Shown here piece by piece: positions 16 to 24,169 of a stretch of 64,000 nucleotides of DNA (within the stretch, counting starts at the first letter, position 1; every line of letters begins with the position of its first letter). The notes under the pieces were generated by a model. The model made no database searches. It saw nothing but the letters and a program-made list of their open reading frames with translations, and was not told where the DNA came from. The position numbers and the translations under genes were made by a program. The stretch comes from a virus. Location of the stretch: IMG/VR virus record IMGVR_UViG_3300014913_001094, positions 1 to 64,000 of that record; one strand, written 5' to 3'.

Positions 16-918
16 ATGAAAAACAATTTAAAAGGTTTTACTAAAGAGGCAACATCAGTTAAGGAGATTCTTTGGGAATATCTGATGAATGGTTACATAA
101 ATCATCTCAAAGGACTTAGAAGTAATAATGATGTCTGGTGGACAAGTAATGAGCCTGTTGATTGGGAAAAGCTTAGTCAAGAATTAAACATTCCTGGTGC
201 ACTAGTTCATCCAGTAGAAACCTTTATAACTGATACGGCTGATCTTTATTGGGATGAAGATGAAGAGAAATGTCGCATCCTCGGTCAATTGTTAGATGAG
301 AACGATCTTGCCTTAATATTTAACTCATTGGAGCCACAGTTTATTGAGGAAATGAATAAGGTACTCGAAAGTCCACCATTTTCTGAGAAGGAAGAAGAAG
401 ACGATGACGATTGGGCTCCTCCTTTTCAACCTCAAAAAACGCGCAGACAAGAGATTGATGAAGCTAAGCGGATGTTGGATCTTCAAACTCACAATCAAAT
501 TAAACTACTTCGATTAGCAATGACTCTCGACGAAAAGGGCTTTTCAAAAGAGGCTGGTACTTTAGATCAAATTGTCAAAGAAGCCTCTTGTCCTTATTGT
601 GGAGATCCTGCTGGCTATCAAGGGTTTAATAGAGTAGATTGTCCTTCTTGTGGTGGAAGAGCAAAAGGAAGAAGTCAAGAACCTGAGCCTCCTCGATATG
701 CTTTAACAGATACTGAAGAGACAATAGGTAAATATCGCACTCTAGAGGAAGTTGAACAAGCAAAGCGAGATTACATAAATAAAGCAGCAGAAGAGGCATA
801 TTACACATATGACGAAGAAGATCCTCTTTTTGAGGGATATCTTTCTGAAGGACATTTGAGAGATTATCTAGATGATATATTAGAGATTGTAGATCTCGAT
901 ACATTGTACTCTGGTTAA
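16..918 (+). CDS. Hypothetical head-module protein with shared helical tag and a CxxC...CxxC zinc ribbon
   Basis: IKLLRLAMTLDEKGFSKEAGTLDQIVKEA tag followed by CPYC..CPSC; AAGG upstream of the ATG. Confidence 0.75.
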   Translation: MKNNLKGFTKEATSVKEILWEYLMNGYINHLKGLRSNNDVWWTSNEPVDWEKLSQELNIPGALVHPVETFITDTADLYWDEDEEKCRILGQLLDENDLALIFNSLEPQFIEEMNKVLESPPFSEKEEEDDDDWAPPFQPQKTRRQEIDEAKRMLDLQTHNQIKLLRLAMTLDEKGFSKEAGTLDQIVKEASCPYCGDPAGYQGFNRVDCPSCGGRAKGRSQEPEPPRYALTDTEETIGKYRTLEEVEQAKRDYINKAAEEAYYTYDEEDPLFEGYLSEGHLRDYLDDILEIVDLDTLYSG

Positions 919-927
919 AGGATGTAA

Positions 928-1464
928 ATGAAAAAGAGGGACCAGCTAGTGGAACCACGTTATACAGTTACCCTACGAGTACGCGATGACACAGATACTA
1001 TCTATTATCGTGTTGCTGTCGAAGACAATAAAGAGCAAGAAGTAAGTGGATTTATGCATTCGTCAGAGAATTATAATGAGGCTTTTGCTTATGCTCGTAT
1101 TTTCTTTGATGAATTGTCACAGAGAGAAAAAATAATCGCTTCTTACATAGAGCAGCCTGGTATGGTTACTGGTCAAGGAGCATTATTCAGTATAGGCTCC
1201 TTTGCTGCACAATATGAAGATATTGTTTCTGATGAAGAGTTTTATAAGATGTTGGCTCATGAATTAATTGCCAATATAATTCGAGGACCTAAGAGACACA
1301 TTAATGTAATATTTAGACATATCATTCAAAGACATAAGTTAGATATATATAAGGAAAAGAAATTTTTTCAATATCTCGAAAATGAGGGCATAATCAAATC
1401 CGAGGAAGATGATGTTGAGGGCTGGTTAGAGCGACAGCAAGAGGAAATGAGAAGAGATGGCTAA
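928..1464 (+). CDS. Hypothetical protein
   Basis: 178-aa ORF with AAGGA RBS, tightly packed between its neighbours. Confidence 0.75.
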   Translation: MKKRDQLVEPRYTVTLRVRDDTDTIYYRVAVEDNKEQEVSGFMHSSENYNEAFAYARIFFDELSQREKIIASYIEQPGMVTGQGALFSIGSFAAQYEDIVSDEEFYKMLAHELIANIIRGPKRHINVIFRHIIQRHKLDIYKEKKFFQYLENEGIIKSEEDDVEGWLERQQEEMRRDG

Positions 1465-2347
1465 AGCAGAGAGTAGATTAGACTTCCATAAGTCTGCATA
1501 CAATGACATGCTAGGTAAGGGCTGGGATAGTGGAAAGCAATATTCGTATTGCATTCAGCGTGCTGTAGATAATGATCCTCAGTTTTGGTGGGTTTGGGAT
1601 GCCTTACATAAATTTCCTCATCCTCCTAATTGGGAAAGCGTTCAGAGAAATTCTGATGGAACATACAAAAGCTTCCCCAGTGGCAGTACTGCTTCATTGC
1701 ATGATCGCATCGTAAAGCTAGCCTGTGATATGAATAAGAAAGGACTCGTAAAGTCGGCTTGTCGTCTTTTAAAAATGTCTCAGTGGAAAGAAAAAAATCC
1801 TGATGCTTGGAAAGAAAATCCTGATGCCGGGAAAGAGAGTGGAGAAGTATGGGAGAATAACTTCGAGTCCTATGCTGTTGGGTATGGAGGATGGAATTTT
1901 GGTGAGGATTTCTTTATCTTTGAGCAGCCATGGCAGGAGTTGGAAGTCGGACCTGAGACAACAATGGTTTATAGAAGAGAGCCATATCTCATGGGAGGAA
2001 ATCTGACAGAACAACATGGACCACATGATCAGTCTTGTTACTGCACTAACATACCCGGTAAAGCCAAATTAGACGGAAGCGGTGAGCTTGTAGAGGTTAA
2101 TTGGGAATTAAATGAAGATGATGAAATTCATATGGATATGACTCTCGAGCTGCGCGAAGATTTGGTAGATGAGGATAGACAGCCATTACTAGGTAGTAAA
2201 AATCAATTCAAAGTTATGTTTGAATATGAGCCGCTTGGTGCATTTGACTCTCTCCAGGAAGCTAAAGCTTTTGTTGAGCAAGAGCATGCTAGATATGTTA
2301 GTGGCGAGTGGAGTTCGTGGGACTTAAGTCAGGTTGATAAAGGATAA
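1457..2347 (+). CDS. Hypothetical protein with helical tag (may continue past an in-frame TAA into 2441..2713)
   Basis: RIVKLACDMNKKGLVKSACRLLK tag variant; overlaps the upstream stop codon. Confidence 0.7.
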   Translation: MAKAESRLDFHKSAYNDMLGKGWDSGKQYSYCIQRAVDNDPQFWWVWDALHKFPHPPNWESVQRNSDGTYKSFPSGSTASLHDRIVKLACDMNKKGLVKSACRLLKMSQWKEKNPDAWKENPDAGKESGEVWENNFESYAVGYGGWNFGEDFFIFEQPWQELEVGPETTMVYRREPYLMGGNLTEQHGPHDQSCYCTNIPGKAKLDGSGELVEVNWELNEDDEIHMDMTLELREDLVDEDRQPLLGSKNQFKVMFEYEPLGAFDSLQEAKAFVEQEHARYVSGEWSSWDLSQVDKG

Positions 2348-2440
2348 GATGAGCCTCTCTTTTTAAAAAATGATGAAAATGATGAAAATGGTTCGCACGA
2401 AAAAGATCCGACAGCTCCCTCTGTTGAGGATTTAAATCAA

Positions 2441-2713
2441 ATGTTCAAATGGGAGCATCTCTTCAAGCGCCTAGTGCGTAAAGGATACCATAAAGAGGCT
2501 CGTAAATTACGCAAGGTTGCACAAGAGTATGTTGCCGATGAATGGATGAGGTCAAATGACCCTGGATCAGGGTGGGAGCTTATCGACGGTGAGAACGACG
2601 GAACTATATTCCGTTACACCTATCAGTCAGCAAAAACGGGAGAGATTCGAACATATGCCGTTACCACAGCTAACGGAGCTATTGTTGATGCTCGACATGA
2701 AATAGTGGAGTAA
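2441..2713 (+). CDS. Small hypothetical protein with helical tag; true start uncertain
   Basis: LFKRLVRKGYHKEARKLRKVAQ; the same frame is open back to 2348. Confidence 0.65.
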   Translation: MFKWEHLFKRLVRKGYHKEARKLRKVAQEYVADEWMRSNDPGSGWELIDGENDGTIFRYTYQSAKTGEIRTYAVTTANGAIVDARHEIVE

Positions 2714-2719
2714 AAATCT

Positions 2720-5053: not shown

Positions 5054-6846
5054 AAAAAAGAGCCGCAGACTATCCATGGGGTGATCCTCAAGAGCCAGAA
5101 ATTACAGAAGAAGACAAAGAGCGAGCAAAGGAATGGGTTACTCAAACTCCAGAAAAAGCCAAGCAAGAAGGGTTTTACGAACAGGAGCAGAAAGCCGCCT
5201 CCAAGATGTTCTTTCAAGCATGGACCACAGCACGCGGTAAGGGGCGTAGTGCAAATATAATGTACGATGAGCCTCTTAAAATTACAGTTTGGAGATCTCG
5301 AAGTGTAGATCACACAGCCTTCATTAGTCAAATTATGGAAAACATGCTACCATACTATGTAGCTGCCTTGAGAGCTGTTTATCCCGAACTACAACAGCAG
5401 GCATTAGGAAATTCTAAGTCAGCAAGAGATTTGAAACAACGACTTACACTTGTTGATAGACTCATTGGAGAAGGAAGTTACGAGCACGAGTCTCTACAGA
5501 TAGGTGTAGAGAAAGCTTGGGAAGAAAAAGAGAGAATACTACAAGAGAAAAAAGATCAAGGTGGAAGCACAAAGAGACTCAACTCAGAAAGAGATGCCAT
5601 AGAGGCCTTCTATAGTGGTATTTCCTCTTTTCCTGGACTTCAGCAAAACTTTCTTGAACATATTGTTGAGCAAGCTTATACTGATTTTTCAAAGGCTCAC
5701 ACAGGAACGACGGGTCGTTATCCAAATGCTTTGCTTACTTTCTATATGATGGATAATCCATATCCTTACCTCGTTAGTTCTCCTGCTGAATGCAAGACTC
5801 AAGCTGAGCTTGAAGAAAAATATCCAGATGGTACTACGGAAGAAAATCCTGCTCCTGGTGTAGCTTTGGCAGACAAAAGACCAACCTTTGAGGCTTTTCG
5901 TAATTTGGCAGATAAGTGGTTTGTACAGAATGTTCCAAACCCAGACTATAAGCCAATACAATATGGCACGAGCCAGTTTCCAATTGGACCTAAAGGTGAA
6001 GAGTCTTTAAAGAATGATGTTGCCGATCGAGTTTCTGATCTAATGGAAAAGGCAATGTTTACACCTAATTTTTACATTGCTAAACAAGTAACTTCTGCCG
6101 ACTTTGGAGATCAGCCTGGAATCAGACTTCAGGATCTTGGAAAAGAAAAGAAGGGGATTGTTATTCCTGGTTCAGCGCTTAAACCAAGTGAATCAACCTG
6201 GATTCCCAACGTTGAAGAGCGTGACATTACCTCTTCTCCTTCAGGAGGACTATTTACTGGTGAGCCTCCAGAGCGAAAAGAGAAGATAGTTGAAGAGGTA
6301 AAAAAGAAGCCAAGTGGTAAATTCACTCTTCCCAAGGGCTATCCAAAGATCTCTTCAAAGGAAAGTCTTATAAAGACGCCAAAACAACAAATACGTCCAT
6401 CAGCAGACATTTTTAGTAGAGCCTTGATTGAGACTTTTGCTCAGACAGCAGGAGGAGATCTTTGGATTGATGATGGTGGTAAGATCTACGACAGTATGGA
6501 GCAATTGCTTCAGCAAGATCAGTCAGGCGAGGAGATGGATGAGGTAGCCTTTAGAGCGGCCATAAAGGAAGCAGTTGTACAAGACTTAGGAAGTGGACTT
6601 GCCGCTCCCCAACCAGAGGCTCCTGAAGTTCAGCCAACATTTGATATTGTAGAGGAAGAGGATTTTGAAGAAGAAAACGTAATTCAATTACCACAAGAGC
6701 AAGAAGATGAAGTGCTCGCTCCTGCAGCATCTAAAATTAAACGACTCGTTGCATTGGCAGAGCAATTAGATAAGCAAGGATTAACTAAACAAGCAGATCG
6801 TGTTGACCAACAGATACAAAATTTACTGGACAAAATGTCCAAATAA
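5050..6846 (+). CDS. Hypothetical head-module protein with C-terminal helical tag
   Basis: ATGA overlap with the upstream gene; C-terminal IKRLVALAEQLDKQGLTKQADRVD. Confidence 0.8.
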   Translation: MKKRAADYPWGDPQEPEITEEDKERAKEWVTQTPEKAKQEGFYEQEQKAASKMFFQAWTTARGKGRSANIMYDEPLKITVWRSRSVDHTAFISQIMENMLPYYVAALRAVYPELQQQALGNSKSARDLKQRLTLVDRLIGEGSYEHESLQIGVEKAWEEKERILQEKKDQGGSTKRLNSERDAIEAFYSGISSFPGLQQNFLEHIVEQAYTDFSKAHTGTTGRYPNALLTFYMMDNPYPYLVSSPAECKTQAELEEKYPDGTTEENPAPGVALADKRPTFEAFRNLADKWFVQNVPNPDYKPIQYGTSQFPIGPKGEESLKNDVADRVSDLMEKAMFTPNFYIAKQVTSADFGDQPGIRLQDLGKEKKGIVIPGSALKPSESTWIPNVEERDITSSPSGGLFTGEPPERKEKIVEEVKKKPSGKFTLPKGYPKISSKESLIKTPKQQIRPSADIFSRALIETFAQTAGGDLWIDDGGKIYDSMEQLLQQDQSGEEMDEVAFRAAIKEAVVQDLGSGLAAPQPEAPEVQPTFDIVEEEDFEEENVIQLPQEQEDEVLAPAASKIKRLVALAEQLDKQGLTKQADRVDQQIQNLLDKMSK

Positions 6847-6864
6847 TTGAGAGAGGACTCACAA

Positions 6865-7287
6865 ATGTCAGACGTACTAAGAGAATTTTGGGACAGTAAG
6901 TATGGAAAAGGTCTTATGAAGAAGGCTTCTACAGAGAAGAAAGCATTTGATCAGGATTCGTACTATGAAAGTGGACTACAAGGACCAACACAAGATGAAA
7001 TTAAACTTGCACATCCAGGCGGCGGAACAGATATTCCCGATGTCGGTCCAGGTGATGCACATTTTGAGACAGTTGATGAGGTAGCGCAGGTAATGGAAGA
7101 GGTTGCTCGCAAAGCTCCAACATGCACTGAAGGTTCCCTCAAAGGTATTTCTAAAAAGGCTAAAATGAACACACTCCAAAAGCTTGCTCAAATTGCTGAT
7201 CAACTTGATCAAGCAGGTCTTTCTGAAGAAGCTGATATGATTGACGCTATTATTCAGGAAGAAATGAAGGTGGCTGGAAAAAAGTAA
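6865..7287 (+). CDS. Small scaffold-related protein (AHPGGG motif plus helical tag)
   Basis: GAGG RBS before ATG 6865. AHPGGGTDIPDV..DAHFET matches the scaffold region of 20037..23174. Tag LAQIADQLDQAGLSEEADMID. Confidence 0.75.
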   Translation: MSDVLREFWDSKYGKGLMKKASTEKKAFDQDSYYESGLQGPTQDEIKLAHPGGGTDIPDVGPGDAHFETVDEVAQVMEEVARKAPTCTEGSLKGISKKAKMNTLQKLAQIADQLDQAGLSEEADMIDAIIQEEMKVAGKK

Positions 7288-7376
7288 TCAAAGAGGCATC
7301 TTGTCCTCTTTGTGGAGACCCAGCAGGCTATCAAGGATTTAAAAAAATAGAATGTCCAAGCTGCAATGGCGATCCA

Positions 7377-7631: not shown

Positions 7632-7638
7632 AAAACTA

Positions 7639-7724: not shown

Positions 7725-7727
7725 TTA

Positions 7728-7779: not shown

Positions 7780-9594
7780 ATGGCTAAGAAAAAACAAGAT
7801 GATATGCCATTCCTTACTGGTGATCTTTTATCAGATATGGCAATTTTAGATCCAATTGCTTTTGTGGAAAAGACCCTAACGGTTGATGGTAATCCATTTT
7901 TATTATCAGATTGTGGTAGAGATTATCTACATGAGATTTATAGATATCTTTGCTTAGAGGCACCTGGACCAAAAGGAAAGCCATGTGTTATTAGAAAAGG
8001 TCGTCAGGTTGAAATGACGACAACAGCATCTTGCATTTCGTTGTATATTGCAACAAGCGGTGCCTTTGACCATATTCGTGGACTTCATGCATTTCCGCAG
8101 ATTGAGCAGGCTCGTAGATATTCGAAGATTGTCTTTAGTCCTCGTGTAAAAGAGTCAATTAATGGAGCATTGCAGTCTCGTCTCAAAGGAGATGGTTCAG
8201 TGATGTCACAAGAATTCACTGAAGGAAACTTCATTATGATTGAGGGTTCAGGTGAGTCTGGTGACCGTCTTCGTGGTACTCCGTTAGATTATGTGCTGTT
8301 TGATGAGATTCAGGACTTACCTCGAGCAGCTCGAGAAAATACTCAGGAAGCACTGTCTCATAGTAAGTTTGGCCCTCCTGGTTTTGGTTTAGAAATGGAC
8401 TTTGGAACACCAAAAGAAGAGGGTTCTGACTTTCATAGATTATGGATAGATTCCGATCAAAGACATTATTTTGTTAAATGTCCACATTGTGGTCACTATC
8501 AAATTTTGTATTATGATACGGCTCCTGGTAAACGCTTACTTAAGACCAATCTTGCTGAAGGACGTATGATAAAATGTAATGATCGAGAAGATCAAGGTTG
8601 CCAGCAAATCTATGATAAGAGATTGGGAATTAAACATGGTAAGTGGATGCCAACAGTAGAAAATCCCGATACAGCATCGCGACGCGGATATCATATTGAT
8701 CAACTACTGGTTCCTGATATTACACGTGAATCAATAGATAAGAAGTTGGAAGATCGTACTGAAAGAGCGTTTGCAAATGAAGTAATGGGCTTATTCTACA
8801 GTGGTAGAGACACTGGTCCTTCCTTCGCTCAAGTTGTAGAAGTCGTTACAACAGAGCCAAGTACTTTTGATTGGCATATTAATGCTACAGCGCAAGATCG
8901 CTTCACGTGGGCGGGAATTGACTGGGGACAGAGAATTTCAGGTGAAGATGATGAGGGTGCAGGTGGATATACAGTGTTCGTAGCCATCTCTCGCCTCCCC
9001 AATGGTAAATTTAGATTAGAGCGTGCTGAACGATTGGAGCAGGTTAAAGTAATTGATGGACAACTTGATGACATTATCAAGTGGATAAGGTTATATAAGT
9101 GTAGAGTGGTTTGTGCGGATCATGGTTTTGGACATGTTCAAAATCAAGAATTAATGGAGAGGTATCCAGAGATAGTAAAGAAGATATATTCTTCTGCAGG
9201 TACAAATCAAGCATTTAATTATAAGCCTAAGGAAAAACAAATTACAATAGATAAGCACAGAGTCTTTGAAGAAGTGTATGACCTTATGCTTGATCAAAAG
9301 GGCTTTGCATTTCCATATAGTGAGCCAGCAAAAGTAGAGTGGCTCTGTCGACATCTATCAAATGTTGAGATTGTAAGTAAAACCAATCAATCTGGTCGCG
9401 GTAAGAAGATGTATCAAAAACAAGGTGTAACACAACCAATTGATGGTGCCGCGGCACTTGTTTATGCATATGCAGCATACAAGTTTCAGCAGACATCTGG
9501 ATTTAGCAATATGGATACGGGCGGATTTAGTGGAGGACGTAACATGCCAGCACCTGGTGGCGCGATTGTAAGACGACGAGCAGGGAGAAGGTAA
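7780..9594 (+). CDS. terL: Terminase large subunit (lambda gpA-like ATPase plus nuclease domain)
   Basis: KGRQVEMTT Walker A-like, LRG..LDYVLFDEIQD Walker B, GTP motif III, CPHCGH Zn site, RGYHI motif, GIDWG nuclease motif. Confidence 0.93.
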   Translation: MAKKKQDDMPFLTGDLLSDMAILDPIAFVEKTLTVDGNPFLLSDCGRDYLHEIYRYLCLEAPGPKGKPCVIRKGRQVEMTTTASCISLYIATSGAFDHIRGLHAFPQIEQARRYSKIVFSPRVKESINGALQSRLKGDGSVMSQEFTEGNFIMIEGSGESGDRLRGTPLDYVLFDEIQDLPRAARENTQEALSHSKFGPPGFGLEMDFGTPKEEGSDFHRLWIDSDQRHYFVKCPHCGHYQILYYDTAPGKRLLKTNLAEGRMIKCNDREDQGCQQIYDKRLGIKHGKWMPTVENPDTASRRGYHIDQLLVPDITRESIDKKLEDRTERAFANEVMGLFYSGRDTGPSFAQVVEVVTTEPSTFDWHINATAQDRFTWAGIDWGQRISGEDDEGAGGYTVFVAISRLPNGKFRLERAERLEQVKVIDGQLDDIIKWIRLYKCRVVCADHGFGHVQNQELMERYPEIVKKIYSSAGTNQAFNYKPKEKQITIDKHRVFEEVYDLMLDQKGFAFPYSEPAKVEWLCRHLSNVEIVSKTNQSGRGKKMYQKQGVTQPIDGAAALVYAYAAYKFQQTSGFSNMDTGGFSGGRNMPAPGGAIVRRRAGRR

Positions 9595-14607: not shown

Positions 14608-15213
14608 ATGGTTAGCAACGATTATTTTGATGAATTTCTTCTTGAAGATTGGAGTAATATTGACAAGGAATTAGCTAATGATAGCTATTTTCATAACGAT
14701 AAGGCTCAACAAGAAAAAACAGATCAATCTTCTATGGACGAGCAAGGTCCTACAGAAACTCCAGAAGCTCTTGTTCAACGTCCAACATATGACAGACATA
14801 AGAGTGAAAGTAAGAAAGAGCGTCTTGATCGTGTTCGTGAAGAATATAATAGAAGACCACATGTTTTTGTTGGTGCTAAGCTTCAGGAACGTAGGCGAGC
14901 AAGAGCTGCTCAGGTAGAGCAGATTGATATGACTGTTTTTAAGAAAGACGAGCAAGATGATCAAGAGTTGCGTAAGAAAAAGATTAAAAAGCAACACCCA
15001 GAAATTGATGACGATGCAATTATTAAATTAACAGGAGACGACGAAGACTACCCAGAAGCACGTCCCTCTAGTGTGTCTCACGATAGTACAATTACATATT
15101 TGAAGCCTGGTAGTTTGAAGCAACAATTAACTGCTTTTGCAAAAGATCTTCTTTCTAAAGGATATAAAAAAGAAGCAGCAGCAATTCTTAGAGTGACAAG
15201 TATGGTAAAATAA
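14608..15213 (+). CDS. Hypothetical protein with C-terminal helical tag
   Basis: LTAFAKDLLSKGYKKEAAAIL; AAGGA RBS. Confidence 0.75.
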   Translation: MVSNDYFDEFLLEDWSNIDKELANDSYFHNDKAQQEKTDQSSMDEQGPTETPEALVQRPTYDRHKSESKKERLDRVREEYNRRPHVFVGAKLQERRRARAAQVEQIDMTVFKKDEQDDQELRKKKIKKQHPEIDDDAIIKLTGDDEDYPEARPSSVSHDSTITYLKPGSLKQQLTAFAKDLLSKGYKKEAAAILRVTSMVK

Positions 15214-15248: not shown

Positions 15249-17024
15249 ATGGCAGATAAAACAGGAAATTCTGGCGGAGGCGATGATCTCAGCAGACGTG
15301 GACAACAGCACAGCGGACCTGCTAAACCCGCCGTTCCTTTGCCTCCACATATTCAAGCAGAAGTGCAACGTCGTGAAGCGGCAAAGAATGTGAAGGCAAC
15401 GGCAATGACAAAGACAGCAGGATCTGGTATGGCTTCTCCTGGTGTTGCTGTTGTGCGTAATATTCCTAAAGTATATAGTCCTCTCTATGAGATGACTAAC
15501 TTAATGCTTCCCCGCGACCAGAAGACATTAAACGCGTGGAATCGTCACTTCTTCTCAACCAATCCTATTGTACGTAATGCCGTCACTTTACATGCCACCT
15601 ATCCTATTAGTAAGTTTAATATCACCTGCGAAGATCCAGATATAAAAGATTTCTTTGAAGAGATGTTTCGAACGATAAATTTTAGAGGTTTTCTTTTAGG
15701 TATTTCTTTAGAATACTGGAAGTTAGGAGAGTGCTTCCCCTATCTTGAGCTTGATGAAGAAAATGGAATTTGGGATTATGGATTTGTTCATAATCCAGAC
15801 TTTATTAGAGTTCGCTACTCGTCGTTAGCCAGAGATCCTGTATTTGGACTTGTACCTGATGATTCATTAAGAAAAGTTGTTCAGGGAATGAGTCAGGGTG
15901 ATGCGCAACTTCGACAACAATTACCCGCAGAGGTTGTAAATTATGTACAAAAAGGACAGGACATTCCTCTTCCTAATTTTAACATATCACACCTCAAAAT
16001 GTTGGCGTCAGACTATGATCAGCGTGGTACATCGTTAATTACGTCGGTTTATAAAGATTTAATGTTATACGATAAGATTCGAGAAGCTCAATTTGCACAA
16101 GCAGATGATATGATTAACCCTATGACTCTTGTTAAGTTAGGGGATCCACAAGGTGCTTGGAAACCAAATGATGAAGACATTAGAGCATTCCAGGATATAA
16201 TTGAAGAAAGTCAGTATGATCCAGATTTCAAATTGATAACCCATGGTGCTGTTAATATTGAACGAGTTGGTTATAGTGGAACAACACTCGATGTAGGTCA
16301 AATGTGGGAAGCAATCAATAAGAATTTATATACAGGGCTTCTCGCTCCCGAAGCAATCCTCAACGGTGAAGGTCCCAATTACAGTACAGCTGCAATTGGT
16401 CTCGAAGTACTACGTGTACGTTATGATCGTTTCCGCGAGCAACTATCAGAATGGATTGAAAAGAAAGTCATGGAGCCAATTTGTAAGCTTCAAGATTTCT
16501 ATGTTCGAGAAAAGGGCGCGCAAAGACTAGTTTGTCCAAAGGTGATTTGGAATAAGCTAAATCTGCGAGACATTGATGGTTATACAAGTAATCTTGTAGG
16601 ACTTCTTGCAACACCAGAAGCTCCAGGTAAAGTATCAGATCAAGCTTTGTTTGAAATTCTTGACATAGATTATGAAGAAAATCGAAAGGTTCTACGTAAA
16701 GAAGCAATTGATTCTGCAATCTTCATAAAAGAATCACAAGCACTTGGTAAGATGTCTCTCGAAGAGTTACGTGCTCTTGATTCAGATAAGCCAATCGTCG
16801 ATTTACATAAAGATGAAGAGCTTCCTACTTCAGATGAAATAGGAGGTGATGAAGAAGGTGGACCTGGTGGACTTGAGATGCCAGATCTAGGCGGAATAGG
16901 TGGTGGAAGCGAGGGTGGCTTTGGCGAAGAGGGGATTGCTCCTGAAGGTGGAGATCTCGGTGGATTAGGTGGAGAAGGCGCACCGCCAGCACCACCAGCA
17001 GGCGAAGGTACCGAAATTGGTTAA
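15249..17024 (+). CDS. Portal protein
   Basis: 591 aa, between terL and the protease. NPIVRNAV.LH..YP, GECFPY, RGTSLI..VYKDL...D..R.AQ motifs typical of large-phage portals; acidic Gly-rich tail. Confidence 0.85.
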   Translation: MADKTGNSGGGDDLSRRGQQHSGPAKPAVPLPPHIQAEVQRREAAKNVKATAMTKTAGSGMASPGVAVVRNIPKVYSPLYEMTNLMLPRDQKTLNAWNRHFFSTNPIVRNAVTLHATYPISKFNITCEDPDIKDFFEEMFRTINFRGFLLGISLEYWKLGECFPYLELDEENGIWDYGFVHNPDFIRVRYSSLARDPVFGLVPDDSLRKVVQGMSQGDAQLRQQLPAEVVNYVQKGQDIPLPNFNISHLKMLASDYDQRGTSLITSVYKDLMLYDKIREAQFAQADDMINPMTLVKLGDPQGAWKPNDEDIRAFQDIIEESQYDPDFKLITHGAVNIERVGYSGTTLDVGQMWEAINKNLYTGLLAPEAILNGEGPNYSTAAIGLEVLRVRYDRFREQLSEWIEKKVMEPICKLQDFYVREKGAQRLVCPKVIWNKLNLRDIDGYTSNLVGLLATPEAPGKVSDQALFEILDIDYEENRKVLRKEAIDSAIFIKESQALGKMSLEELRALDSDKPIVDLHKDEELPTSDEIGGDEEGGPGGLEMPDLGGIGGGSEGGFGEEGIAPEGGDLGGLGGEGAPPAPPAGEGTEIG

Positions 17025-17033
17025 AAAATCTAT

Positions 17034-17061
17034 AAATGTATTGATATTCCTTCATTAAATG
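17034..17061 (+). promoter_or_regulatory. Putative phage late promoter (TATYGATWTT..AATG motif), copy 1
   Basis: AAATGTATTGATATTCCTTCATTAAATG; the motif recurs in five intergenic gaps. Confidence 0.65.
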
Positions 17062-17089
17062 AAGGTCTCATAGCTTTAAGAGGAGATGT

Positions 17090-17779
17090 ATGAGTTATTT
17101 AAATTTGATCATTGATACAGTAAACAGTCTGCGAGCAAAAGGTAAAACGCTTTTTGCTGCTGAACTCGATCAATTTTTGCGTAAAAATGCTCAAGATCTG
17201 GGCAATCTTGTTGATATGGAAGAAACACCAGCTCCAGAAGAGGCTCCACAAGAAGAGGCTCCACAAGAAGAGTTGCTCACTGAACCTATTGAGCCTGTAA
17301 AAGAAGAAGTAGATGTGCAAGCAAAGCTTGAACGTACACTACATTATCAATTTGGAGAGTGGCACAGTATAATTGACAGAATGCTTCCAAAATTTGATTA
17401 TTTTGGTGATGATAATATACAAAACTTACGCCATACATTTTCTCATGTAGCAAAAGTCTTTGAACAAGCTATGGAAGGTCAAGAGTCGAATTTTGATAAT
17501 GTATATATGGAGACTTTTAAGGCTCGAATGAGTAATGTAAAAGACCAGTTGAAAGAATCCATAGATGCAAAATTAGATGAAACTAAAGCAAAACTTGATG
17601 CTAGCTTATTGTATGGAGAAACTGAAAAGTTGCACAAATCTTTTAAACGAATTACCAAAGAAGATCCTCGCTTTGCAAAGGTTGGGACTGAATTTGGCAA
17701 TCTAATGAGAGTTTTTGCATTGATAATTCAAAATGTATCAGAAGCAATTGCTAAGACGGATCTAACAGAGGTAAGATAA
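17090..17779 (+). CDS. Hypothetical protein with N-terminal helical tag
   Basis: GAGGAG RBS; IIDTVNSLRAKGKTLFAAELDQFLRKNAQ. Confidence 0.8.
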   Translation: MSYLNLIIDTVNSLRAKGKTLFAAELDQFLRKNAQDLGNLVDMEETPAPEEAPQEEAPQEELLTEPIEPVKEEVDVQAKLERTLHYQFGEWHSIIDRMLPKFDYFGDDNIQNLRHTFSHVAKVFEQAMEGQESNFDNVYMETFKARMSNVKDQLKESIDAKLDETKAKLDASLLYGETEKLHKSFKRITKEDPRFAKVGTEFGNLMRVFALIIQNVSEAIAKTDLTEVR

Positions 17780-18366
17780 TGGCTCTCTTTAAAAAAATAA
17801 CAGCAAGTACAAGAGCTTTAGCTAATGTTGAGCCAACTCTTGAAATGAAGGAGCACTTTGCAGAGAGAACTCAGCGTCATATTGACCTAGTGAATAAGTA
17901 CTTAGAAAAGATGAGTGAAGTTTGTGATTATGACTTTGATGATCACGACGAGAGCAAATTTCAGAGTCCAGAGTATAAGCCATATCTCTTTGTTTCGTGG
18001 GAATATAGATGTAAAGATAAGGACGAAGAATATGAAATACCAGCTGAATGGCAGGATAAATGTCATGAAGCTACAGGTCATCATGTAAAAACAAACAAGC
18101 ATCATCCTGAATACTGGGATGATTCAATTGATGGTGATCCCATTAACGAGAAAGATAGAAATAAGCCACCAGAGACGGTCACAGATGCAACAAAAATGCC
18201 ACCACAATATGTTTTAGAAATGGTGGCTGATTGGTGTGCTATGTCGGAAGAAATGGGAAGCAACACTCCTAAGGAGTGGGCAGACGAGAATGTTGACGTC
18301 AGGTGGAAGTTTAGTTCTGATCAAAAAGATTTAATATATAAGACAATAGATTTGATATGGGAGTAG
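17779..18366 (+). CDS. HD-like phosphohydrolase (DUF5662-like)
   Basis: RH...V, HDESKF, HH...NKHHPEYW, MP...LEMVADWCAMS. Confidence 0.75.
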   Translation: MALFKKITASTRALANVEPTLEMKEHFAERTQRHIDLVNKYLEKMSEVCDYDFDDHDESKFQSPEYKPYLFVSWEYRCKDKDEEYEIPAEWQDKCHEATGHHVKTNKHHPEYWDDSIDGDPINEKDRNKPPETVTDATKMPPQYVLEMVADWCAMSEEMGSNTPKEWADENVDVRWKFSSDQKDLIYKTIDLIWE

Positions 18367-18369
18367 AAA

Positions 18370-18486
18370 ATGGCTCTTTTTAAAAAGGTAGTAGCAGGTA
18401 TTAAAAAGGTTATTACCGATAAAGAAATCAAAAAAGTTGAAGATGAAAAAGAAGCTGAAAAGGCTAAAGATGAAAAAAAAGATTAA
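18370..18486 (+). CDS. Small Lys/Glu-rich ORF (38 aa, not in the ORF track)
   Basis: GGGAG upstream; MALFKKVVAG has the same N-terminus as the preceding gene (MALFKKITAS); TAA at 18484. Confidence 0.5.
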   Translation: MALFKKVVAGIKKVITDKEIKKVEDEKEAEKAKDEKKD

Positions 18487-19960
18487 AACTGCTCAAAACG
18501 AACATCACACATTGACTGTCAAAAAGGCTACTCAGCTTTATGTCATAGGTGGTGTTGGAGAAGCAGAAGATGATGATGATCGACTTCTTTTTTGGTATGC
18601 AATACGTAAATATCCCACTATGTCAAGAGAGATGAAGAGGGAAACCGATACCCAGAGTTTAACTGAGTATATACAAAAGAATCGCCCAGAATGGACTGAA
18701 GGTGAAGAGCCACCGCTCGGTTATGTAGAGTTTTATAAAACTTTACCAGAGCAATTTGGTGAAGGCTCGTCTGAAAGTGCTAGTAAAAATAAGGTTCCAG
18801 GTAAAACTACAATAATTGTGCCACCAACTCCTATTGAAAATTTTAAAGAGCCAACTGGAGATATAAAAAGTGACACACAAGCCGTAATTGAGATTATTAA
18901 AAGAATACGCCAGTTAATTTGGGACTTCCCTGTACAAGGAATTTTTACAGACAATGCAGGATTTCAAGGACAACAACTACGTGATTATATAGGTCAGAAT
19001 TTAATAGCGAGTAGTAAGCATATGACCAAAAAAGCACAACAATCTTTTAAAATTAAGCCAAAAACAGTTCGTTATATTTCTGTTGACACTGGAGAAGTCT
19101 TTTCTAGTGAACAAGCAGTACAAAATGCAATACAAGACCATGTTGATCAGCAGTCCCCGATGGCTGCTGCTGCGTCTAACAATAGAGGAGGAAAAATGAA
19201 AAAAGTGATTGCAGAACTTCTCTCAATTGCTGATTCTCTCGATGAAGCTGGTGCACATGCAGAGGCAGACGAGATTATGACAATTCTTACAGAATTAAAG
19301 TCTGAGGATGATGTAGAGCAAGTAGAAGTAGAAGAGACAGTAGGTGATCAAACACTTCAAGCAAAGAGTGTAATTCAGACTTTAGTCCGAGTTGCTGATT
19401 CGCTTGATGCAAAAGGTGCCACAAAAGAAGCTCAGATTGCAGATAATCTTTTACAAGATATGCAAACAGCTCTTCCACAAGCTTTTACGCCTTTTAGTCA
19501 ACTTGAAACTCCAATTCAAGAGGCTCCAGCTTCAGAGATTGAAGTCCCAGCTCAAGAAGAGGTAATAGTTGAAGAACCTAAAATGACTACCTTTGATCAG
19601 CTTGAAGAGATTATTGAAGAGGAACAAGCTGAGCCAGTAGTTGAAGAGACACCAGCTGAGCCAGTAGTTGAAGAGACACCAGCTGAGCCAGTAGTTGAAG
19701 CTGAACCACAAGAGCCTGTTGAGCCTACTATAGAAGGCGTTGTTGAGCCCGAAGTAGAACATGATGTTTTGACTCTCGAGCAGTTCCAAGAGGTAATTGA
19801 TGGTATGAAATATCGCTTTTCTCAAGGGAAACAGCGTGTACAGTATGAAAAGATTATGGAACAAGCTGAACGAGCAGCAGAATATAAGCGTGCCTATGAA
19901 GAGTGGCTCACGTCTGCACACGAGATGTTTGGTGATACTCCAATTAGACTAGATGTATAA
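18470..19960 (+). CDS. Hypothetical head-module protein with two helical tags and an acidic repeat linker
   Basis: Likely start MKKKIKTAQ; LLSIADSLDEAGAHAEADEI and LVRVADSLDAKGATKEAQIAD. Confidence 0.75.
   Translation: MKKKIKTAQNEHHTLTVKKATQLYVIGGVGEAEDDDDRLLFWYAIRKYPTMSREMKRETDTQSLTEYIQKNRPEWTEGEEPPLGYVEFYKTLPEQFGEGSSESASKNKVPGKTTIIVPPTPIENFKEPTGDIKSDTQAVIEIIKRIRQLIWDFPVQGIFTDNAGFQGQQLRDYIGQNLIASSKHMTKKAQQSFKIKPKTVRYISVDTGEVFSSEQAVQNAIQDHVDQQSPMAAAASNNRGGKMKKVIAELLSIADSLDEAGAHAEADEIMTILTELKSEDDVEQVEVEETVGDQTLQAKSVIQTLVRVADSLDAKGATKEAQIADNLLQDMQTALPQAFTPFSQLETPIQEAPASEIEVPAQEEVIVEEPKMTTFDQLEEIIEEEQAEPVVEETPAEPVVEETPAEPVVEAEPQEPVEPTIEGVVEPEVEHDVLTLEQFQEVIDGMKYRFSQGKQRVQYEKIMEQAERAAEYKRAYEEWLTSAHEMFGDTPIRLDV
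19627..19700 (+). repeat. 27-bp coding tandem repeat (AEPVVEETP), about 2.7 copies
   Basis: AGCTGAGCCAGTAGTTGAAGAGACACC at 19627 and 19654, partial copy at 19681. Confidence 0.9.
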
Positions 19961-19971
19961 TAAAAATATTT

Positions 19972-20000
19972 AAATGTATCGATATTTTTAGCTAAAAATG
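19972..20000 (+). promoter_or_regulatory. Putative phage late promoter, copy 2
   Basis: AAATGTATCGATATTTTTAGCTAAAAATG upstream of the protease/scaffold gene. Confidence 0.65.
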
Positions 20001-20036
20001 GTAGTCTATCACCCTGGTTTTATACGGAGATAATAT

Positions 20037-23000
20037 ATGTTAAAAAAATATGCAACAGGAGAAGTCGCTATTCAAAGCATTAATGCTGAGATGGCTCTTA
20101 ATTCTGAAGCCAATATGAAGCGCTTCCGTGAGCTAACTGCTGAAATTAAGCGGGTTGCTCCAAAGTCAGATGAGTTTGTATATTTTGTATGTCGAGCAAT
20201 TCACGCAATGGAACACGCAAACCTCGATCCTGTCACACAGCAATTTTCTGGTGATGGACACATTGTTAGACGCGGTGAAGATGGATGTTGTTCTACTTGC
20301 AAGCAAAATATGCAAGATTGGCAAGAAGGTTTATGGCACTCAGAAGCAGGAGTTAAACCTTATATTAATCAGAATGGCGATGCGTTTCCAGAATCGGAAC
20401 TTCTCAAAGAAGTTACATCAGAGGACGGAAAAGAAATAAAGGCATTCGAAACATTTATAGGCCGTGGATTATTTGTAAATCATGCAAGTGATGATGCAGA
20501 GAAAATTCGTGGTATCATCTTAGACGCACAGTGGGACCAGGGGACCAAGGGTGTCGACATTCTTGTAGCGTGTGATAAGGTTGCATATCCTGAATTAGCA
20601 CGTCAGATTGAGATGGGATATTCCAACGATGTTTCTATGGGGACACAAGTTGCCTACAGCTTATGTTCTGATTGTGGAAACAGAGCAGTAACAGAAGATG
20701 ATTATTGCGAACATGTTCGTGCCAGTAAAGGTCTAACAACAGCAGGTTGTGAAGATGTATATGAAATTAATAATGGTTTGAACTTTATAGAAATCAGCGT
20801 CGTATCTAACGGTGCTGATCCAAGAGCGAAGATCAAGACGGTTCTCGCAAAACTTAACGAAACAGTCAACGAAAGAGAAACACGTGCTAATACGTGTGTG
20901 AATCCTATGGAAGCTGAGAGACTTCGTGACGAGATTCGTGATCTGCAAGCACAAATTCAAAAGCTCTCAAAAGAGGCCAGTGAGGGTGTTTGCAATGACG
21001 ATTGCGATGATATAGAAAATGGAGGTGTTTGCACAGACGACTCTCGGAATGATGCAGAACAAATAGAGGCAAGACGTATTAGACGTTATAAGACAGCAAG
21101 AGACCTAGGTTTAGAATTAGAAGCCGATCCTTTGAAAGAGGACGGCGTCATTAATGACAAGAAGGAGTCATCCATGTCAAAAGATCAGGAAAAGAAAGCT
21201 TATTTCCAAGGTGGTGGTGGCTTGAACGATCCTTCTGCAACTCCTTATCAGAGCGAAGATTACACAAGCGTTCGCGATAACGACGACAAGCAGATGATCG
21301 GACAAGGTATGGAACCAGGTTCCGAGGGAATGGCCGGGGACGACGAGTCCGTAAAGCAACAAGTACAACGTGGCAGCATTGAAGAGCGTAGACAAAGACG
21401 TCATGCACTCTTGAATCAAACCAAAGAAGCTTACTTTCAAGGTGGTGGAGACGTTAACGATCCCGCTACTCTTCCGTATGAAAAAGAAGATTACGTAAAA
21501 GTACGTGATACCGAAGATAAGCAGATGGTCGGACAAGGCATGGAGCCGGGTTCTGACGGGATGGCTGGCGACGACGCATCCATTAAAGAACAATTACAGC
21601 GTGCCAAACTTCGCGCTACCTTCCGTAAAAGTGCAAGCCGTGGTAATTCTGCTTGGACTCTTTTTGCAGGTAGCGAACCCTTAATGTCCGTAACTGCTGA
21701 GCAGCTCTATGGTGAAGATCTTGATGTTCCTAATGAGGATAATTCAGAGATCACAAATTGGGAATGGGTTAATAGTAAAGATTACGGTAAGAACTTAATT
21801 CAAGCTGTCAAGCAATTAGGTTTTGATACAGTAAAAGCTCAAATTGAGCGCGCTGCCCAAGCTGAAGAAGGCATGCCACTGATGGACCTCGAAGGGGGTG
21901 AAGATCTCGGTCTTGAGGAAATGGCACCTGAAGAAGGCGAAGGCGAAGAACTTGGCGTTGGTGAACAAATTAGTGCTGCTATTGATACCATTGAAGAAGC
22001 TTCACGTGAGCTTCGTGCTCTTAATGAAGGTGATGAAGCTGATGTAGAGTCACTCGGAACCGAAATGAACCTTAACGATGCTGGTGTTGAGCTCGAAGGT
22101 TTAGGTGAAAATTTGGAAGCTGCTAAAGATGACGAAGGTAGACTAAAGGCCCTTAACGTAGTTGTTAAGGAGGCTCTTGAAGATGCTGATAAAGCTGTCA
22201 AAAAGGCTAAGGCATTAGTGACTGCTAAATCCGCATCAATTCCTTCTTCTCCGAAGATTGAAAAGGTAGCAGCTGAAGATGAAGTAGACGAAGAAGATGT
22301 TGAAGAAGCAAAAGAAGACATCGACGATGCTGAAGAGAAGCTTGACGATGCTGAAGAAGAGCTTAGTGATAGCGAAGATGATGACGATGATGATACATGT
22401 GAAGCAATGTCAGCATCTAAGATTCTTGAGCGCAAAGCTGCTCGTTATAAGCTTGCTTCTGAACTTTATCAGATTACTGATGGTGACATGATTGCTGAAG
22501 CACATCCAGGTGGTGGAACTGATGTCCCAGACGTAGATGGTGATGCACATGTTGAAACTGAGACTGAGCAGCAAGCAGCCGACATGGAAGTTGCTGAGAA
22601 GCAGCCCCGTGGCGAATTAACAGCGCGTCAATCAGCTCGCCGCAAGCTAATTGCAAAGCTTGAAGCTGAAGCTGAGTGTGGTAATTGCACTGGTCCAGAA
22701 GATTGCACAAAAGGTGATGACGAAGAGGACGAAGAAGAAGCTACTGATAAGACAGCTCAAGTTCAAGAGCATCTTACTGAAGTTTTTAGTGAAGCTGAAG
22801 AAGCTGAAGAGAAGCCAGAGATTGATGAAGAACTCAAGCAAGAGTTTGTTCAAAAGTCAACAGCCAATACTCATGAGCTTAAGCTTCGCATGAAACGTGC
22901 TTATCGTATTGCTAATAAGCAAGCTCAACTTGGTCAGATCGAATCTACCGATGAGTCTATTGAAGCTCAAGTAGATCGCCTCACTGATATGGATAGTGAT

Positions 23001-23174
23001 AGTTTTGATGCTCTTGCTAATGTTGTTGACAATACAGAGATTGTCAAGGACGCAAAAGTAACTAAAGCTTTCGTTAAGTCAGCTGGTGCTATACAGTTAG
23101 GTCGCACAAAGCCAGGTTTAGGTAATGGTTCAGAAGATCTTTCTAAAGGTCTTGGAAATCTGCCCTGGAAATAA
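20037..23174 (+). CDS. Prohead maturation protease fused to an acidic coiled-coil scaffolding protein
   Basis: N-terminal NQNGDAF..EL, FVNH, RGIILDA, VSMG...CSDCGN...CEH, FIEISVV..GADPRA protease motifs; long Glu/Asp/Ala-rich C-terminal part. Confidence 0.85.
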   Translation: MLKKYATGEVAIQSINAEMALNSEANMKRFRELTAEIKRVAPKSDEFVYFVCRAIHAMEHANLDPVTQQFSGDGHIVRRGEDGCCSTCKQNMQDWQEGLWHSEAGVKPYINQNGDAFPESELLKEVTSEDGKEIKAFETFIGRGLFVNHASDDAEKIRGIILDAQWDQGTKGVDILVACDKVAYPELARQIEMGYSNDVSMGTQVAYSLCSDCGNRAVTEDDYCEHVRASKGLTTAGCEDVYEINNGLNFIEISVVSNGADPRAKIKTVLAKLNETVNERETRANTCVNPMEAERLRDEIRDLQAQIQKLSKEASEGVCNDDCDDIENGGVCTDDSRNDAEQIEARRIRRYKTARDLGLELEADPLKEDGVINDKKESSMSKDQEKKAYFQGGGGLNDPSATPYQSEDYTSVRDNDDKQMIGQGMEPGSEGMAGDDESVKQQVQRGSIEERRQRRHALLNQTKEAYFQGGGDVNDPATLPYEKEDYVKVRDTEDKQMVGQGMEPGSDGMAGDDASIKEQLQRAKLRATFRKSASRGNSAWTLFAGSEPLMSVTAEQLYGEDLDVPNEDNSEITNWEWVNSKDYGKNLIQAVKQLGFDTVKAQIERAAQAEEGMPLMDLEGGEDLGLEEMAPEEGEGEELGVGEQISAAIDTIEEASRELRALNEGDEADVESLGTEMNLNDAGVELEGLGENLEAAKDDEGRLKALNVVVKEALEDADKAVKKAKALVTAKSASIPSSPKIEKVAAEDEVDEEDVEEAKEDIDDAEEKLDDAEEELSDSEDDDDDDTCEAMSASKILERKAARYKLASELYQITDGDMIAEAHPGGGTDVPDVDGDAHVETETEQQAADMEVAEKQPRGELTARQSARRKLIAKLEAEAECGNCTGPEDCTKGDDEEDEEEATDKTAQVQEHLTEVFSEAEEAEEKPEIDEELKQEFVQKSTANTHELKLRMKRAYRIANKQAQLGQIESTDESIEAQVDRLTDMDSDSFDALANVVDNTEIVKDAKVTKAFVKSAGAIQLGRTKPGLGNGSEDLSKGLGNLPWK

Positions 23175-23200
23175 GGCTAAGTCAGCTATAAGTTGATGAT

Positions 23201-23245
23201 GGTGGTCTCATCGGTCTCCTATGAGACTTGAGACCACCTTTTTTT
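23201..23245 (+). terminator. Intrinsic terminator
   Basis: GGTGGTCTCA...TGAGACCACC stem with inner GTCTC/GAGAC, followed by T7. Confidence 0.85.
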
Positions 23246-23256
23246 ATGAAAGATCA

Positions 23257-23439
23257 ATGATGAAAGTCAATGAGAAAAATTGTATTGAGCAACTTAAAGA
23301 AACATTGAATGTTCTGAGAAATATTTGTGCTTTCTTGCAAAAAGATAAGGCCAAGAATCGTCGGGAAATTGGTAATCTCGATGGTGCAATTCGTAACATC
23401 AATGAAGCAATTCGTTCAAGACAAAAAAATAGAAAATGA
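23257..23439 (+). CDS. Small hypothetical helical protein
   Basis: Start placed at the first ATG after the terminator; 60 aa. Confidence 0.5.
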   Translation: MMKVNEKNCIEQLKETLNVLRNICAFLQKDKAKNRREIGNLDGAIRNINEAIRSRQKNRK

Positions 23440-23446
23440 GCTTGAC

Positions 23447-24169
23447 GTGAACCTTATAAAAATTAAAGCGCAGATAAAGTTAATTCGTCGCCTTCATAGT
23501 TTTGGGCAGCAATTAGTCAATAAGAAGTGCTATGCTGAAGCAACAAATCTTCTTACGTTGATTCAAGACATAGCACAAACGCTGCCTCCTGAATTGGCAC
23601 AACAAATGGTTATGCAGGTAGATCTTTCGCCAATATCCGAAAGTCATGATGCACTAGGGTTACAGATTGTTCTTCCTCAAGGAGCAATTTCCATCGATGA
23701 GCTCCCCCAAGCCTTTGATCAACAACAGACAATCGCAGATAAGGTTGAAGACTTTAAAGGAAGATTGAGTCTTGCTAAGCAAAAAATGTTTATTACTGCA
23801 CAATATCAAATTTCATGTTCATGGTGTAATGATTCTTTGATTGAGTGTGAAATTGAAGAATCACATGGAGTTTGTAGACAGTGTGCTCTCGAAATGTTAG
23901 CAAAAGAGGGTGTTGAACTAACCTCAGTTGAGATAGAAGAGCTTAATAGACTCAGAGAAGAAAAGAAAAAAGATCAAAGTGGCAGTGATGGACATATAAT
24001 TGCTTCCAAGCCAAAAAAGGTGAAAGAAATCGCAGATGCAATCAGAAGAGATGATCCAAAGGTTTCTGATGAAAAGGCTTACAAAATGTCCTGGGAAACT
24101 TACTGTTCCTATGTAAACCCGAGCTATAAAGGGTGTACAGAAAAAGGCAAAAGTAAGAGGAAGAGTTAA
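23447..24169 (+). CDS. Hypothetical protein with degenerate helical tag and CSWC..SHGVCxxC Zn finger (start uncertain)
   Basis: LIRRLHSFGQQLVNKKCYAEATNLL; Zn-finger motif; frame open from 23327. Confidence 0.7.
   Translation: MNLIKIKAQIKLIRRLHSFGQQLVNKKCYAEATNLLTLIQDIAQTLPPELAQQMVMQVDLSPISESHDALGLQIVLPQGAISIDELPQAFDQQQTIADKVEDFKGRLSLAKQKMFITAQYQISCSWCNDSLIECEIEESHGVCRQCALEMLAKEGVELTSVEIEELNRLREEKKKDQSGSDGHIIASKPKKVKEIADAIRRDDPKVSDEKAYKMSWETYCSYVNPSYKGCTEKGKSKRKS

Follow-up and report, generated by a model that had tools for sequence, protein, structure and literature searches.

In the first 64,000 nucleotides of the IMG/VR virus record IMGVR_UViG_3300014913_001094 (hereafter the window; the whole record has 91,453 bp and a completeness of about 54% according to CheckV) we found a peptide tag of about 30 residues on a number of proteins that otherwise showed no resemblance to each other. 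Judged from its sequence, the tag is a real and undescribed mini-domain that is widespread in related phages. It probably acts as a protein-protein docking or association module, because the same surface residues are found on all carriers, the tag is fused through linkers at either terminus, some proteins hold multiple copies or consist of tags only, and a four-helix packing is predicted. A more specific reading, in which docking takes place in the core of the assembling prohead and the tag is a capsid address, draws on analogy with other phages and is tentative; we give it somewhat less than even weight.

Tag copies in the window and their carrier proteins

A first-pass annotation of the window had listed twelve copies of the tag. 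All twelve stretches are present and in frame in open reading frames (ORFs) of the plus strand, with only the copy at 19368 off by one base, and they could be aligned without internal gaps (MAFFT) around a core L-x-x-x-G...A that looks invariant. Their significance was judged with leave-one-out profiles within the window (best unrelated six-frame match 4-6 bits), with leave-protein-out profiles from which whole proteins and three weak seeds had been removed, and with an independent profile made only from copies of other phages, without any window sequence, which was searched against the six-frame translation of the genome (noise about 4 bits). Leave-one-out profiles recovered nine of the twelve copies at 12-24 bits. 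Five copies were significant with the independent profile (E 1.3e-9 to 9e-4), which gave no match on non-coding frames, and three more (2453, 11833 and 13090) were supported by leave-protein-out profiles at E 0.02-0.06. The copy at 15115 is borderline, and those at 1697, 17099 and 23480 were not supported statistically. In all, 8-9 copies in 6-7 unrelated window proteins are supported.

The best copy forms the C-terminus of g7 (7171..7254; ORF 6847-7287, 146 aa), with 34.6 bits and E = 1.3e-9 for the independent profile and 25.5 bits in the leave-protein-out test. An internal copy in g1 (499..585; ORF 16-918, residues ~162-190) scored 26.7 bits (E = 4e-7; leave-protein-out 28.0 bits) and is preceded by an acidic linker and followed by a CxxC...CxxC zinc-ribbon-like tail, for which there was a sub-threshold match to DUF7117. 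The two internal tags of g17 (ORF 18437-19960) lie at 19205..19287 (16.0 bits, E = 9e-4; leave-protein-out 10.5 bits) and 19368..19455 (23.8 bits, E = 3e-6; leave-protein-out 9.9 bits), and g6 (ORF 5050-6846, 598 aa) ends in an acidic linker and a tag (6736..6816; 21.0 bits, E = 2.5e-5; leave-protein-out 11.7 bits). In both g6 and g17, small-residue motifs of the A-A-S type were seen a few residues ahead of the tags.

Of the three copies supported by leave-protein-out profiles, those at 2453 and 11833 are divergent. The N-terminal tag of g4 (2453..2524; ORF 2441-2713, 90 aa) scored 12.4 bits in the leave-one-out test and 11.1 bits against a background of 5.7 in the leave-protein-out test (E = 0.02), and only 5.1 bits with the independent profile. 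The 569-aa protein g11 (ORF 11815-13524) begins with a tag (11833..11910; leave-protein-out 11.5 bits, E = 0.017; independent profile 9.1 bits, E = 0.13) and has a second, internal one at residues ~426-451 (13090..13167; leave-protein-out 9.7 bits, E = 0.06), which is 65% identical to the first. The borderline copy at the C-terminus of g13 (15115..15200; ORF 14608-15213) reached 12.9 bits in the leave-one-out test, 6.0 bits with the independent profile, and 6.2 bits against a background of 6.0 after removal of the weak seeds. The varied placement noted in the first pass was confirmed, with N-terminal (2453, 11833, 17099), C-terminal (6736, 7171, 15115) and internal copies (499, 13090, 19205, 19368).

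Among the unsupported stretches, the one in g3 (1697..1783; ORF 1457-2347) scored 3.6 bits at rank 16 in the leave-one-out test and 1.6 bits with the independent profile, and the degenerate one in g19 (23480..23577; ORF 23327-24169) scored -0.6 bits in the former test and 6.0 bits against a background of 6.9 in the leave-protein-out test. The degenerate N-terminal copy of g15 (17099..17194; ORF 17090-17779), the gene right after the portal gene, failed every profile test. L001 is the contig most closely related to the window (60% identity of the portal proteins). Its g15 ortholog (L001:8347-8997) occupies the same slot after the portal gene, shares the C-terminus (BLASTP E 1e-5) and carries a 32-bit tag at its start. 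The g15 copy is probably a decayed real one, which is suggested by position only. The slot equivalent to g19 in L001 (13051-13983) encodes an unrelated tagged zinc-finger protein.

These scores also bear on a chance resemblance among ordinary amphipathic helices. Such an explanation would fit the background scores at 1697, 17099, 23480 and arguably 15115. For the core copies it is refuted by the five significant matches of a profile from other phages, by a search of 1.84 billion proteins in which 3,418 clusters matched at E <= 1e-3, and by the lack of any match in a non-coding frame, and we regard it as extremely improbable. A DNA-level repeat or recent duplication was also rejected. Nucleotide identity between the window copies is 43% on average and 68% at most, so the peptide rather than the DNA is conserved.

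Apart from the tag, the carriers appear unrelated. None of the tagged proteins g1, g4, g6, g7, g11, g13 and g17 belongs to a Pfam or PHROG family, and the ESM Atlas gave nothing for g7 or g11. With the exception of g17, the tagged window proteins showed no similarity outside the tag to each other or to 80 related portal loci (tblastn); matches of g7 in these loci were through the tag only. The tags are tethered to their carriers through acidic or variable linkers. In L001 the genes for TerL (the large terminase), the HAD-domain protein g10, the portal protein, the protease-domain protein g18 and g20 are conserved and untagged, and the slots between these core genes hold genes that differ from those of the window and are often tagged. 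A portable helical-hairpin module on otherwise unrelated proteins, as proposed in the first pass, is well supported by the dissimilar carriers, the use of either terminus, the number of protein clusters and the predicted hairpins.

The two-tag protein g17 (18437..19960), encoded on the plus strand between portal and protease, is an exception among these orphan carriers. It has eight full-length homologs with 38-47% identity, and in this family of nine members the N- and C-terminal domains are conserved, the core residues of both tags are invariant and the linkers are variable. Within its sub-clade g17 is a candidate for a hub or scaffold-like protein.

The tag had also been reported from the head half of the genome only. 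Within the window this holds true, as nothing scored above ~7 bits at 24-64 kb. Outside the window there is one further copy at genome position 71.1 kb in the glycosyltransferase (GT) region, at the start of a 96-aa protein with a Cys-rich zinc ribbon (71090-71380). It scored 13-15 bits with window-trained profiles and 8.2 bits with the independent profile (at 71114). The combination of tag and zinc ribbon recurs in g1, in this protein, in P0127 and in genes at L076:4295-5287 and L073:17381-17773 of related loci.

Consensus and distribution of the tag

A profile of a 55-copy alignment was searched against 1.84 billion representative proteins. In addition to the clusters mentioned above, of which 238 matched at E <= 1e-10, this search provided a consensus from the top 150 proteins: M-I-K-E-L-I-K-L-A-N-H-L-D-x-K-G-L-x-K-E-A-D-Y-L-D-x-I-I-K-K-A-A. 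Relative to the turn glycine (G0, 97%) the most conserved positions are L-11 (85%), A-7 (88%), L-4 (97%) and D-3 (98%) before it and E+4 (89%), A+5 (95%) and D+9 (95%) after it. The conserved polar residues are mostly acidic (D-3, E+4, D+6, D+9). Of 260 copies in these 150 proteins, 121 lie within 12 residues of the N-terminus, often starting from Met1, and 37 likewise at the C-terminus. Two or three copies were present in 96 of the 150 proteins, a list in which multi-copy proteins are over-represented, as the scores of their copies are summed. No match to the tag was found among Pfam, PHROG and PDB sequences, no PHROG covers it, and a full-text literature search with a few tag motif strings returned chance hits only.

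The phage itself, as far as its genes tell, is an uncultured, distant relative of Bacillus phage G. No close relatives were found among GenBank phages. The nearest cultured counterpart of its portal protein is that of phage G (35% identity), and many metagenomic portals are closer, with identities of up to 74%. We searched 80 IMG/VR loci around such portal homologs with the tag profile and obtained 86 matches in 44 of 81 sequences, without exception on the coding strand. Tagged genes peak at certain slots, namely the ninth to eleventh gene before the portal gene (~20%), the third gene before it (25%) and the second gene after it (21%). The gene right after the portal gene is tagged in many relatives. 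The portal gene, the gene directly before it and the seventh gene before it were never tagged in the 80 loci. At 7-10 kb upstream of the portal gene a recurrent family (L016, L021, L038, L067, L068 and others) has a conserved G-G-x-x-L-Q-S-S motif that leads directly into the first helix; its tags are C-terminal or internal, often two or three per protein.

Cargo domains recognised in the portal loci were PilZ, MgtE_N/FliG-like domains and zinc ribbons. Among the 115 top database matches double zinc ribbon, EF-hand, HEAT, AP2, ferritin-like and Prok-RING domains were found, and most of these proteins are without any family.

In two large relatives the copies could be placed on longer genome records. 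In G003 (316 kb, 94% complete) two of 15 copies are near the portal gene and ten are at 145-162 kb, and in G002 (232 kb) nine of 11 copies are at 33-42 kb; the genes for TerL, portal and major capsid protein (MCP) are located at 34-52 kb and 139-156 kb, respectively. The far clusters are arrays of small orphan genes in which the tag mostly begins at residue 4. Pfam and PHROG searches of the carriers and their neighbours revealed nothing useful on function. A gene with a ClpP/crotonase fold (phrog_1128, E 2e-32; L082:2702-3280, at ~146 kb of G003) adjoins tagged genes of the far cluster. The restriction to head modules expected in the first pass is thus seen as clustering in the window and at the portal slots, and it breaks down in the far clusters of G002 and G003 and in the GT-region copy.

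No tag copies were found in phage G (497 kb), in LR745208 and Rctr197k, or in the record of G007 (236 kb, 71% complete). A tblastn search of 50,697 GenBank phage records with a two-tag protein gave no match, and a pattern scan of GTDB genomes yielded no confirmed tag.

Predicted hairpin, probable docking and possible destination

The sequence pattern of the tag comprises hydrophobic stripes with i, i+3, i+4, i+7 spacing in both helices, a glycine helix stop (L-D-x-K-G-L) and a conserved polar face, from which it appears to be a hairpin with an exposed hydrophobic surface. Structures were predicted with AlphaFold2 (AF2) from single sequences without alignment, and in these models every tag is a helix, a K-G turn and a second helix. 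For P0130, a 95-aa protein of two tags and linker, helices were modelled at residues 2-14 and 18-45 (pLDDT 82, pTM 0.64). In the segment of g17 with both tags (residues 250-350; pLDDT 75, pTM 0.58) the model contains hairpins at segment positions H3-22/H25-43 for tag 1 and H53-77/H80-96 for tag 2. All 101 residues of this two-tag model could be superposed on four-helix bundles of the up-down type, such as UPF0147 (Z 11.2) and single-chain ROP (1yo7; Z 10.8, rmsd 3.3 over 101 aligned residues). As a Z of ~11 is ordinary for helical bundles, the superposition demonstrates only that the model packs both hairpins together.

The hairpin resembles a single TPR in length, helix-turn-helix shape and the spacing of small and large residues in the first helix, where the A/L/G/A pattern is reminiscent of TPR positions 8, 11, 15 and 20. 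We therefore considered a solo TPR-type repeat that would serve as a small ligand- or peptide-binding unit. A Foldseek search of the P0130 model against PDB yielded nothing significant; its first row was a designed TPR at E = 1.5. In another search a weak match to the TPR-like chaperone YscG (E 0.023) fell short of the cut-off. Pfam TPR models, however, matched none of ten tagged ORFs (E <= 1), 115 tagged proteins (E <= 1e-3) or multi-tag proteins even at E <= 10. The hydrophobic register of the second helix, as read from sequence, differs from that of a TPR, and instead of three or more adjacent tandem repeats the tag occurs singly or in two to three copies, with linkers of 20 to several hundred residues between them. 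Taken together, this makes a solo TPR very improbable. An EF-hand loop was rejected, as with G0 at loop position 6 the residue at position 1 is H, R or S and that at position 5 is K. Among the 115 proteins EF-hand_7 matched two and two other EF-hand models one each, matches that were not mapped to tag or cargo.

In the reading that we favour, the docking module of ~30 residues would consist of two helices, the first of them amphipathic, that are joined by a K-G turn, and would be fused via flexible linkers to the N- or C-terminus, or sometimes inside, of fast-evolving accessory proteins. A two-helix hairpin on its own has no way to bury its hydrophobic stripe and so needs a partner. Most likely the hairpin would complete a four-helix bundle together with a second copy or with a single shared receptor, and such pairing might link single-tag 'client' proteins to multi-tag proteins, i.e. 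g17 and g11 in the window and tag-linker-tag proteins elsewhere.

The same hairpin could also serve plain self-association, with no capsid address involved, in that each hairpin dimerises its own protein in a ROP-like way or turns it into a multimer, or forms a condensate-like network by way of multi-tag proteins. The AF2 packing of two tags into a four-helix bundle and the existence of tag-linker-tag and three-tag proteins are consistent with this explanation, as are the copies far from head genes in G002 and G003 and the fact that the tag itself is the only element common to all tag-bearing genomes. AF2 models of two-tag segments superpose on the bundle of ROP/Rom hairpin dimers, and multi-copy proteins would be explained by a pairing of hairpins. 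This is a likeness of fold only, at a Z common for helical bundles, and ROP is an RNA-binding plasmid regulator rather than a fused tag. Identical surface residues are, however, conserved on all carriers, and copies present in one cell would therefore cross-pair instead of forming private dimers. Self-association would also leave unexplained why the copies cluster at head genes in the window and occupy fixed portal slots in relatives. We consider it rather unlikely.

For the docking module, the most likely destination would be the core of the assembling prohead, similar to the T4 capsid-targeting sequence or the helix-turn-helix of the P22 scaffold, because clients are encoded between terminase, portal and protease and g17 lies where scaffold-type genes are found. 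The supported window copies (0.5-19.5 kb) surround TerL, portal and protease, and the same reading is favoured by the fixed portal slots, the tagged gene right after the portal gene in many relatives and the position of the two-tag g17 between portal and protease.

Several observations weigh against this destination or the pairing behind it, or are neutral. Most copies in G002 and G003 are clustered ~100 kb upstream of TerL, portal and MCP, at the same relative place in both genomes; a baseplate gene lies ~50 kb beyond MCP and ~130-165 kb from the tag clusters in the direction of gene order. One copy lies in the GT region of the present genome, whose record is just over half complete. PilZ, AP2, ferritin-like and EF-hand domains as cargo do not point to capsids, and neither do proteins made of tag and linker only, such as P0130 and the three-tag protein P0167 (109 aa). 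The non-tag domains of g17 are absent from the tag-rich huge relatives, where G001-G003 match g17 only via the tags. The four-helix packing stems from single-sequence models at moderate confidence with commonplace Z values, and in two-tag proteins such a bundle could be wholly intramolecular.

The absence of the other g17 domains from tag-rich huge phages is also the reason to reject g17 as a universal receptor; in G006 and G007 it had no match at all. What the tag-rich huge-phage genomes and the present genome share is only the tag itself and the core head proteins.

The far clusters would rather suit docking to a hub other than the capsid, be it a compartment in which the phage replicates or assembles, a chaperone or a protease, a site on the tail or fibres, or a protein of the host at which small effectors are aimed. 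In near-complete relatives the largest clusters are indeed arrays of small orphan genes far from the structural genes, signalling and regulatory domains occur among the cargo (PilZ, AP2, EF-hand, MgtE_N/FliG-like), and the ClpP/crotonase-like gene lies beside one of the clusters. No candidate hub was identified, however, and in the window the copies surround terminase, portal and protease. Distance from head genes is not decisive either, because the internal-protein genes of T4 are also located away from the head genes and distance alone does not exclude capsid loading. We regard a non-capsid hub as quite unlikely.

The closest known parallel to a prohead address is the capsid-targeting sequence (CTS) of T4, which brings a variety of internal proteins into the scaffolding core (PMC3012670). 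Like the tag, the CTS of IPI-III and Alt is one short conserved terminal peptide on unrelated hypervariable small proteins of one phage (PMC3012670, PMC9026906). In both systems many carriers begin with the peptide at residue 1, and their genes may be arranged in arrays apart from those of the head. The CTS differs in having ~10 residues and an N-terminal position only, whereas the tag is a 30-residue hairpin that is found N-terminally, C-terminally or internally, with as many as three copies. The CTS sequence is not known to resemble the tag (compared without alignment).

In shape the tag is closer to the P22 scaffold protein, which binds coat protein through a C-terminal helix-turn-helix and whose capsid is known to hold cargo in virus-like particles (PMC9962691). 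That domain is likewise an amphipathic helix-turn-helix of ~36 residues at a terminus and docks a protein to the procapsid from inside, which would be the obvious equivalent of the mechanism considered here. An amphipathic helix-turn-helix of ~35 residues is also present in the AF2 models of P0130 and g17. The P22 domain acts via basic residues on one protein, whereas the conserved polar residues of the tag are mostly acidic and its carriers many. Homology to scaffold proteins was not detected, as a search of the full set of PDB sequences with the 55-copy profile (E <= 10) yielded only two matches, both by chance and neither a scaffold protein. A similarity to the T7 scaffold gp9 was dismissed, because one Pfam match at 1e-4 was accompanied by a best phmmer E of 0.15 and a gp9 profile score of -0.9 bits and looks compositional. 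A further parallel is provided by the N-terminal propeptides of head and ejection proteins in phiKZ-like giant phages such as SPN3US, where the prohead protease processes removable regions at the termini of many head-internal proteins (PMC10052503, PMC7411985); these propeptides are long and are not one shared portable sequence. Overall, membership of the tag in the CTS, P22-scaffold, TPR or EF-hand families could not be demonstrated, and it would rather work like a docking tag.

The first pass had further noted a K-x-A or similar directly after many copies and proposed that the maturation protease releases the cargo. K-x-A follows about half of the window copies, and family-wide it is just a moderately conserved extension of the second helix: K is found in 46%, K or E in 57% and A in 32% of copies, and K-[KE]-A after about a third. 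Window proteins contain 114 K-x-A triplets versus 80 +/- 8 in shuffled sequences (z ~4) and 30 K-[KE]-A versus 13 +/- 3. The control was a weak one, as within-protein shuffling does not preserve helix-rich local composition, and the excess may only reflect helix-rich K/A/E segments. For comparison, the T4 CTS is cut off by gp21 at L/I-x-E, and the cleavage motif of SPN3US propeptides ends in Glu. For K-x-A as a protease site we found no support and nothing against it either; an A-K-E-A at the boundary of the MCP N-terminal extension is not conserved and reads Q-K/R-D-E in four relatives.

This extension of ~43 aa (window positions 28466-28600) is itself conserved in G002, G003, G006 and G007 and absent from gp27 of phage G. 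It might be a propeptide or, possibly, a docking site on the inner capsid surface. G007 has the extension, yet no tags were found in its record. A half-tag suspected within the extension (L-I-R-Y-A-N-M-L) obtained no profile score.

The most far-reaching version of our reading would be a programmable cargo system in a large clade of uncultured big phages, in which one conserved hairpin pairs with other copies into four-helix bundles and multi-tag hubs (g17 in the window, tag-linker-tag proteins elsewhere) gather dozens of interchangeable, fast-evolving clients into a protein core that is built into the prohead and reaches the host along with the DNA. We think of this version as doubtful.

Core head genes and significance of the tag

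Almost all genes of the window are on the plus strand, and the core head genes among them are untagged. TerL (7780..9594) was recognised by phrog_675 (E 1e-70) and PF05876, the portal protein (15249..17024) by phrog_16240 (E 7e-59) and MCP (28466..29509) by phrog_2522 (E 5e-68), all on the plus strand. The plus-strand gene g18 (20037..23174) encodes a 1045-aa protein with a head maturation protease domain (phrog_18299, E 1e-17; phrog_2774) that is confined to residues ~110-260. The long remainder is unannotated, conserved in L001, and contains 18 K-x-A triplets.

The gene at 9594-11810, between terminase and portal, encodes a 738-aa protein in which residues 187-331 form an NT5C/HAD nucleotidase-like domain. 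It is an unusual core gene for a head block, and the C-terminal half of the protein is conserved in L001 with 39% identity. Directly 3' of the MCP gene lies an HNH/endonuclease VII-like gene (29634-30341; phrog_1035, E 2e-18), which may be a homing endonuclease. Some portal homologs (P0005, P0009, P0012, P0025, P0030) are ~960-1035 aa long, and LAGLIDADG/intein domains (PF14528, PF14890, PF05203) in some long homologs, e.g. P0025 and P0030, suggest that portal genes of this clade contain inteins. The terminase match of G002 (C1:138960-140678) has one in-frame TAA, for which a split gene, an intron or intein, a sequencing error or recoding are possible explanations.

Should the tag prove to be an address or docking label, its sequence would be enough to mark a whole class of accessory proteins that otherwise could not be annotated. 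The marked proteins would then be candidates for injected effectors or head-internal proteins, across thousands of clusters from uncultured large phages, and the tag would be a handle for finding its receptor. It would also represent a natural, compact fusion tag, usable at either end, for loading proteins into HK97-fold capsids, and would test how far the T4 strategy of a conserved tag plus hypervariable cargo reaches beyond T4-like phages. Even if it is only a dimerisation hairpin, it would still be an undescribed and very common phage mini-domain that is worth a family entry.

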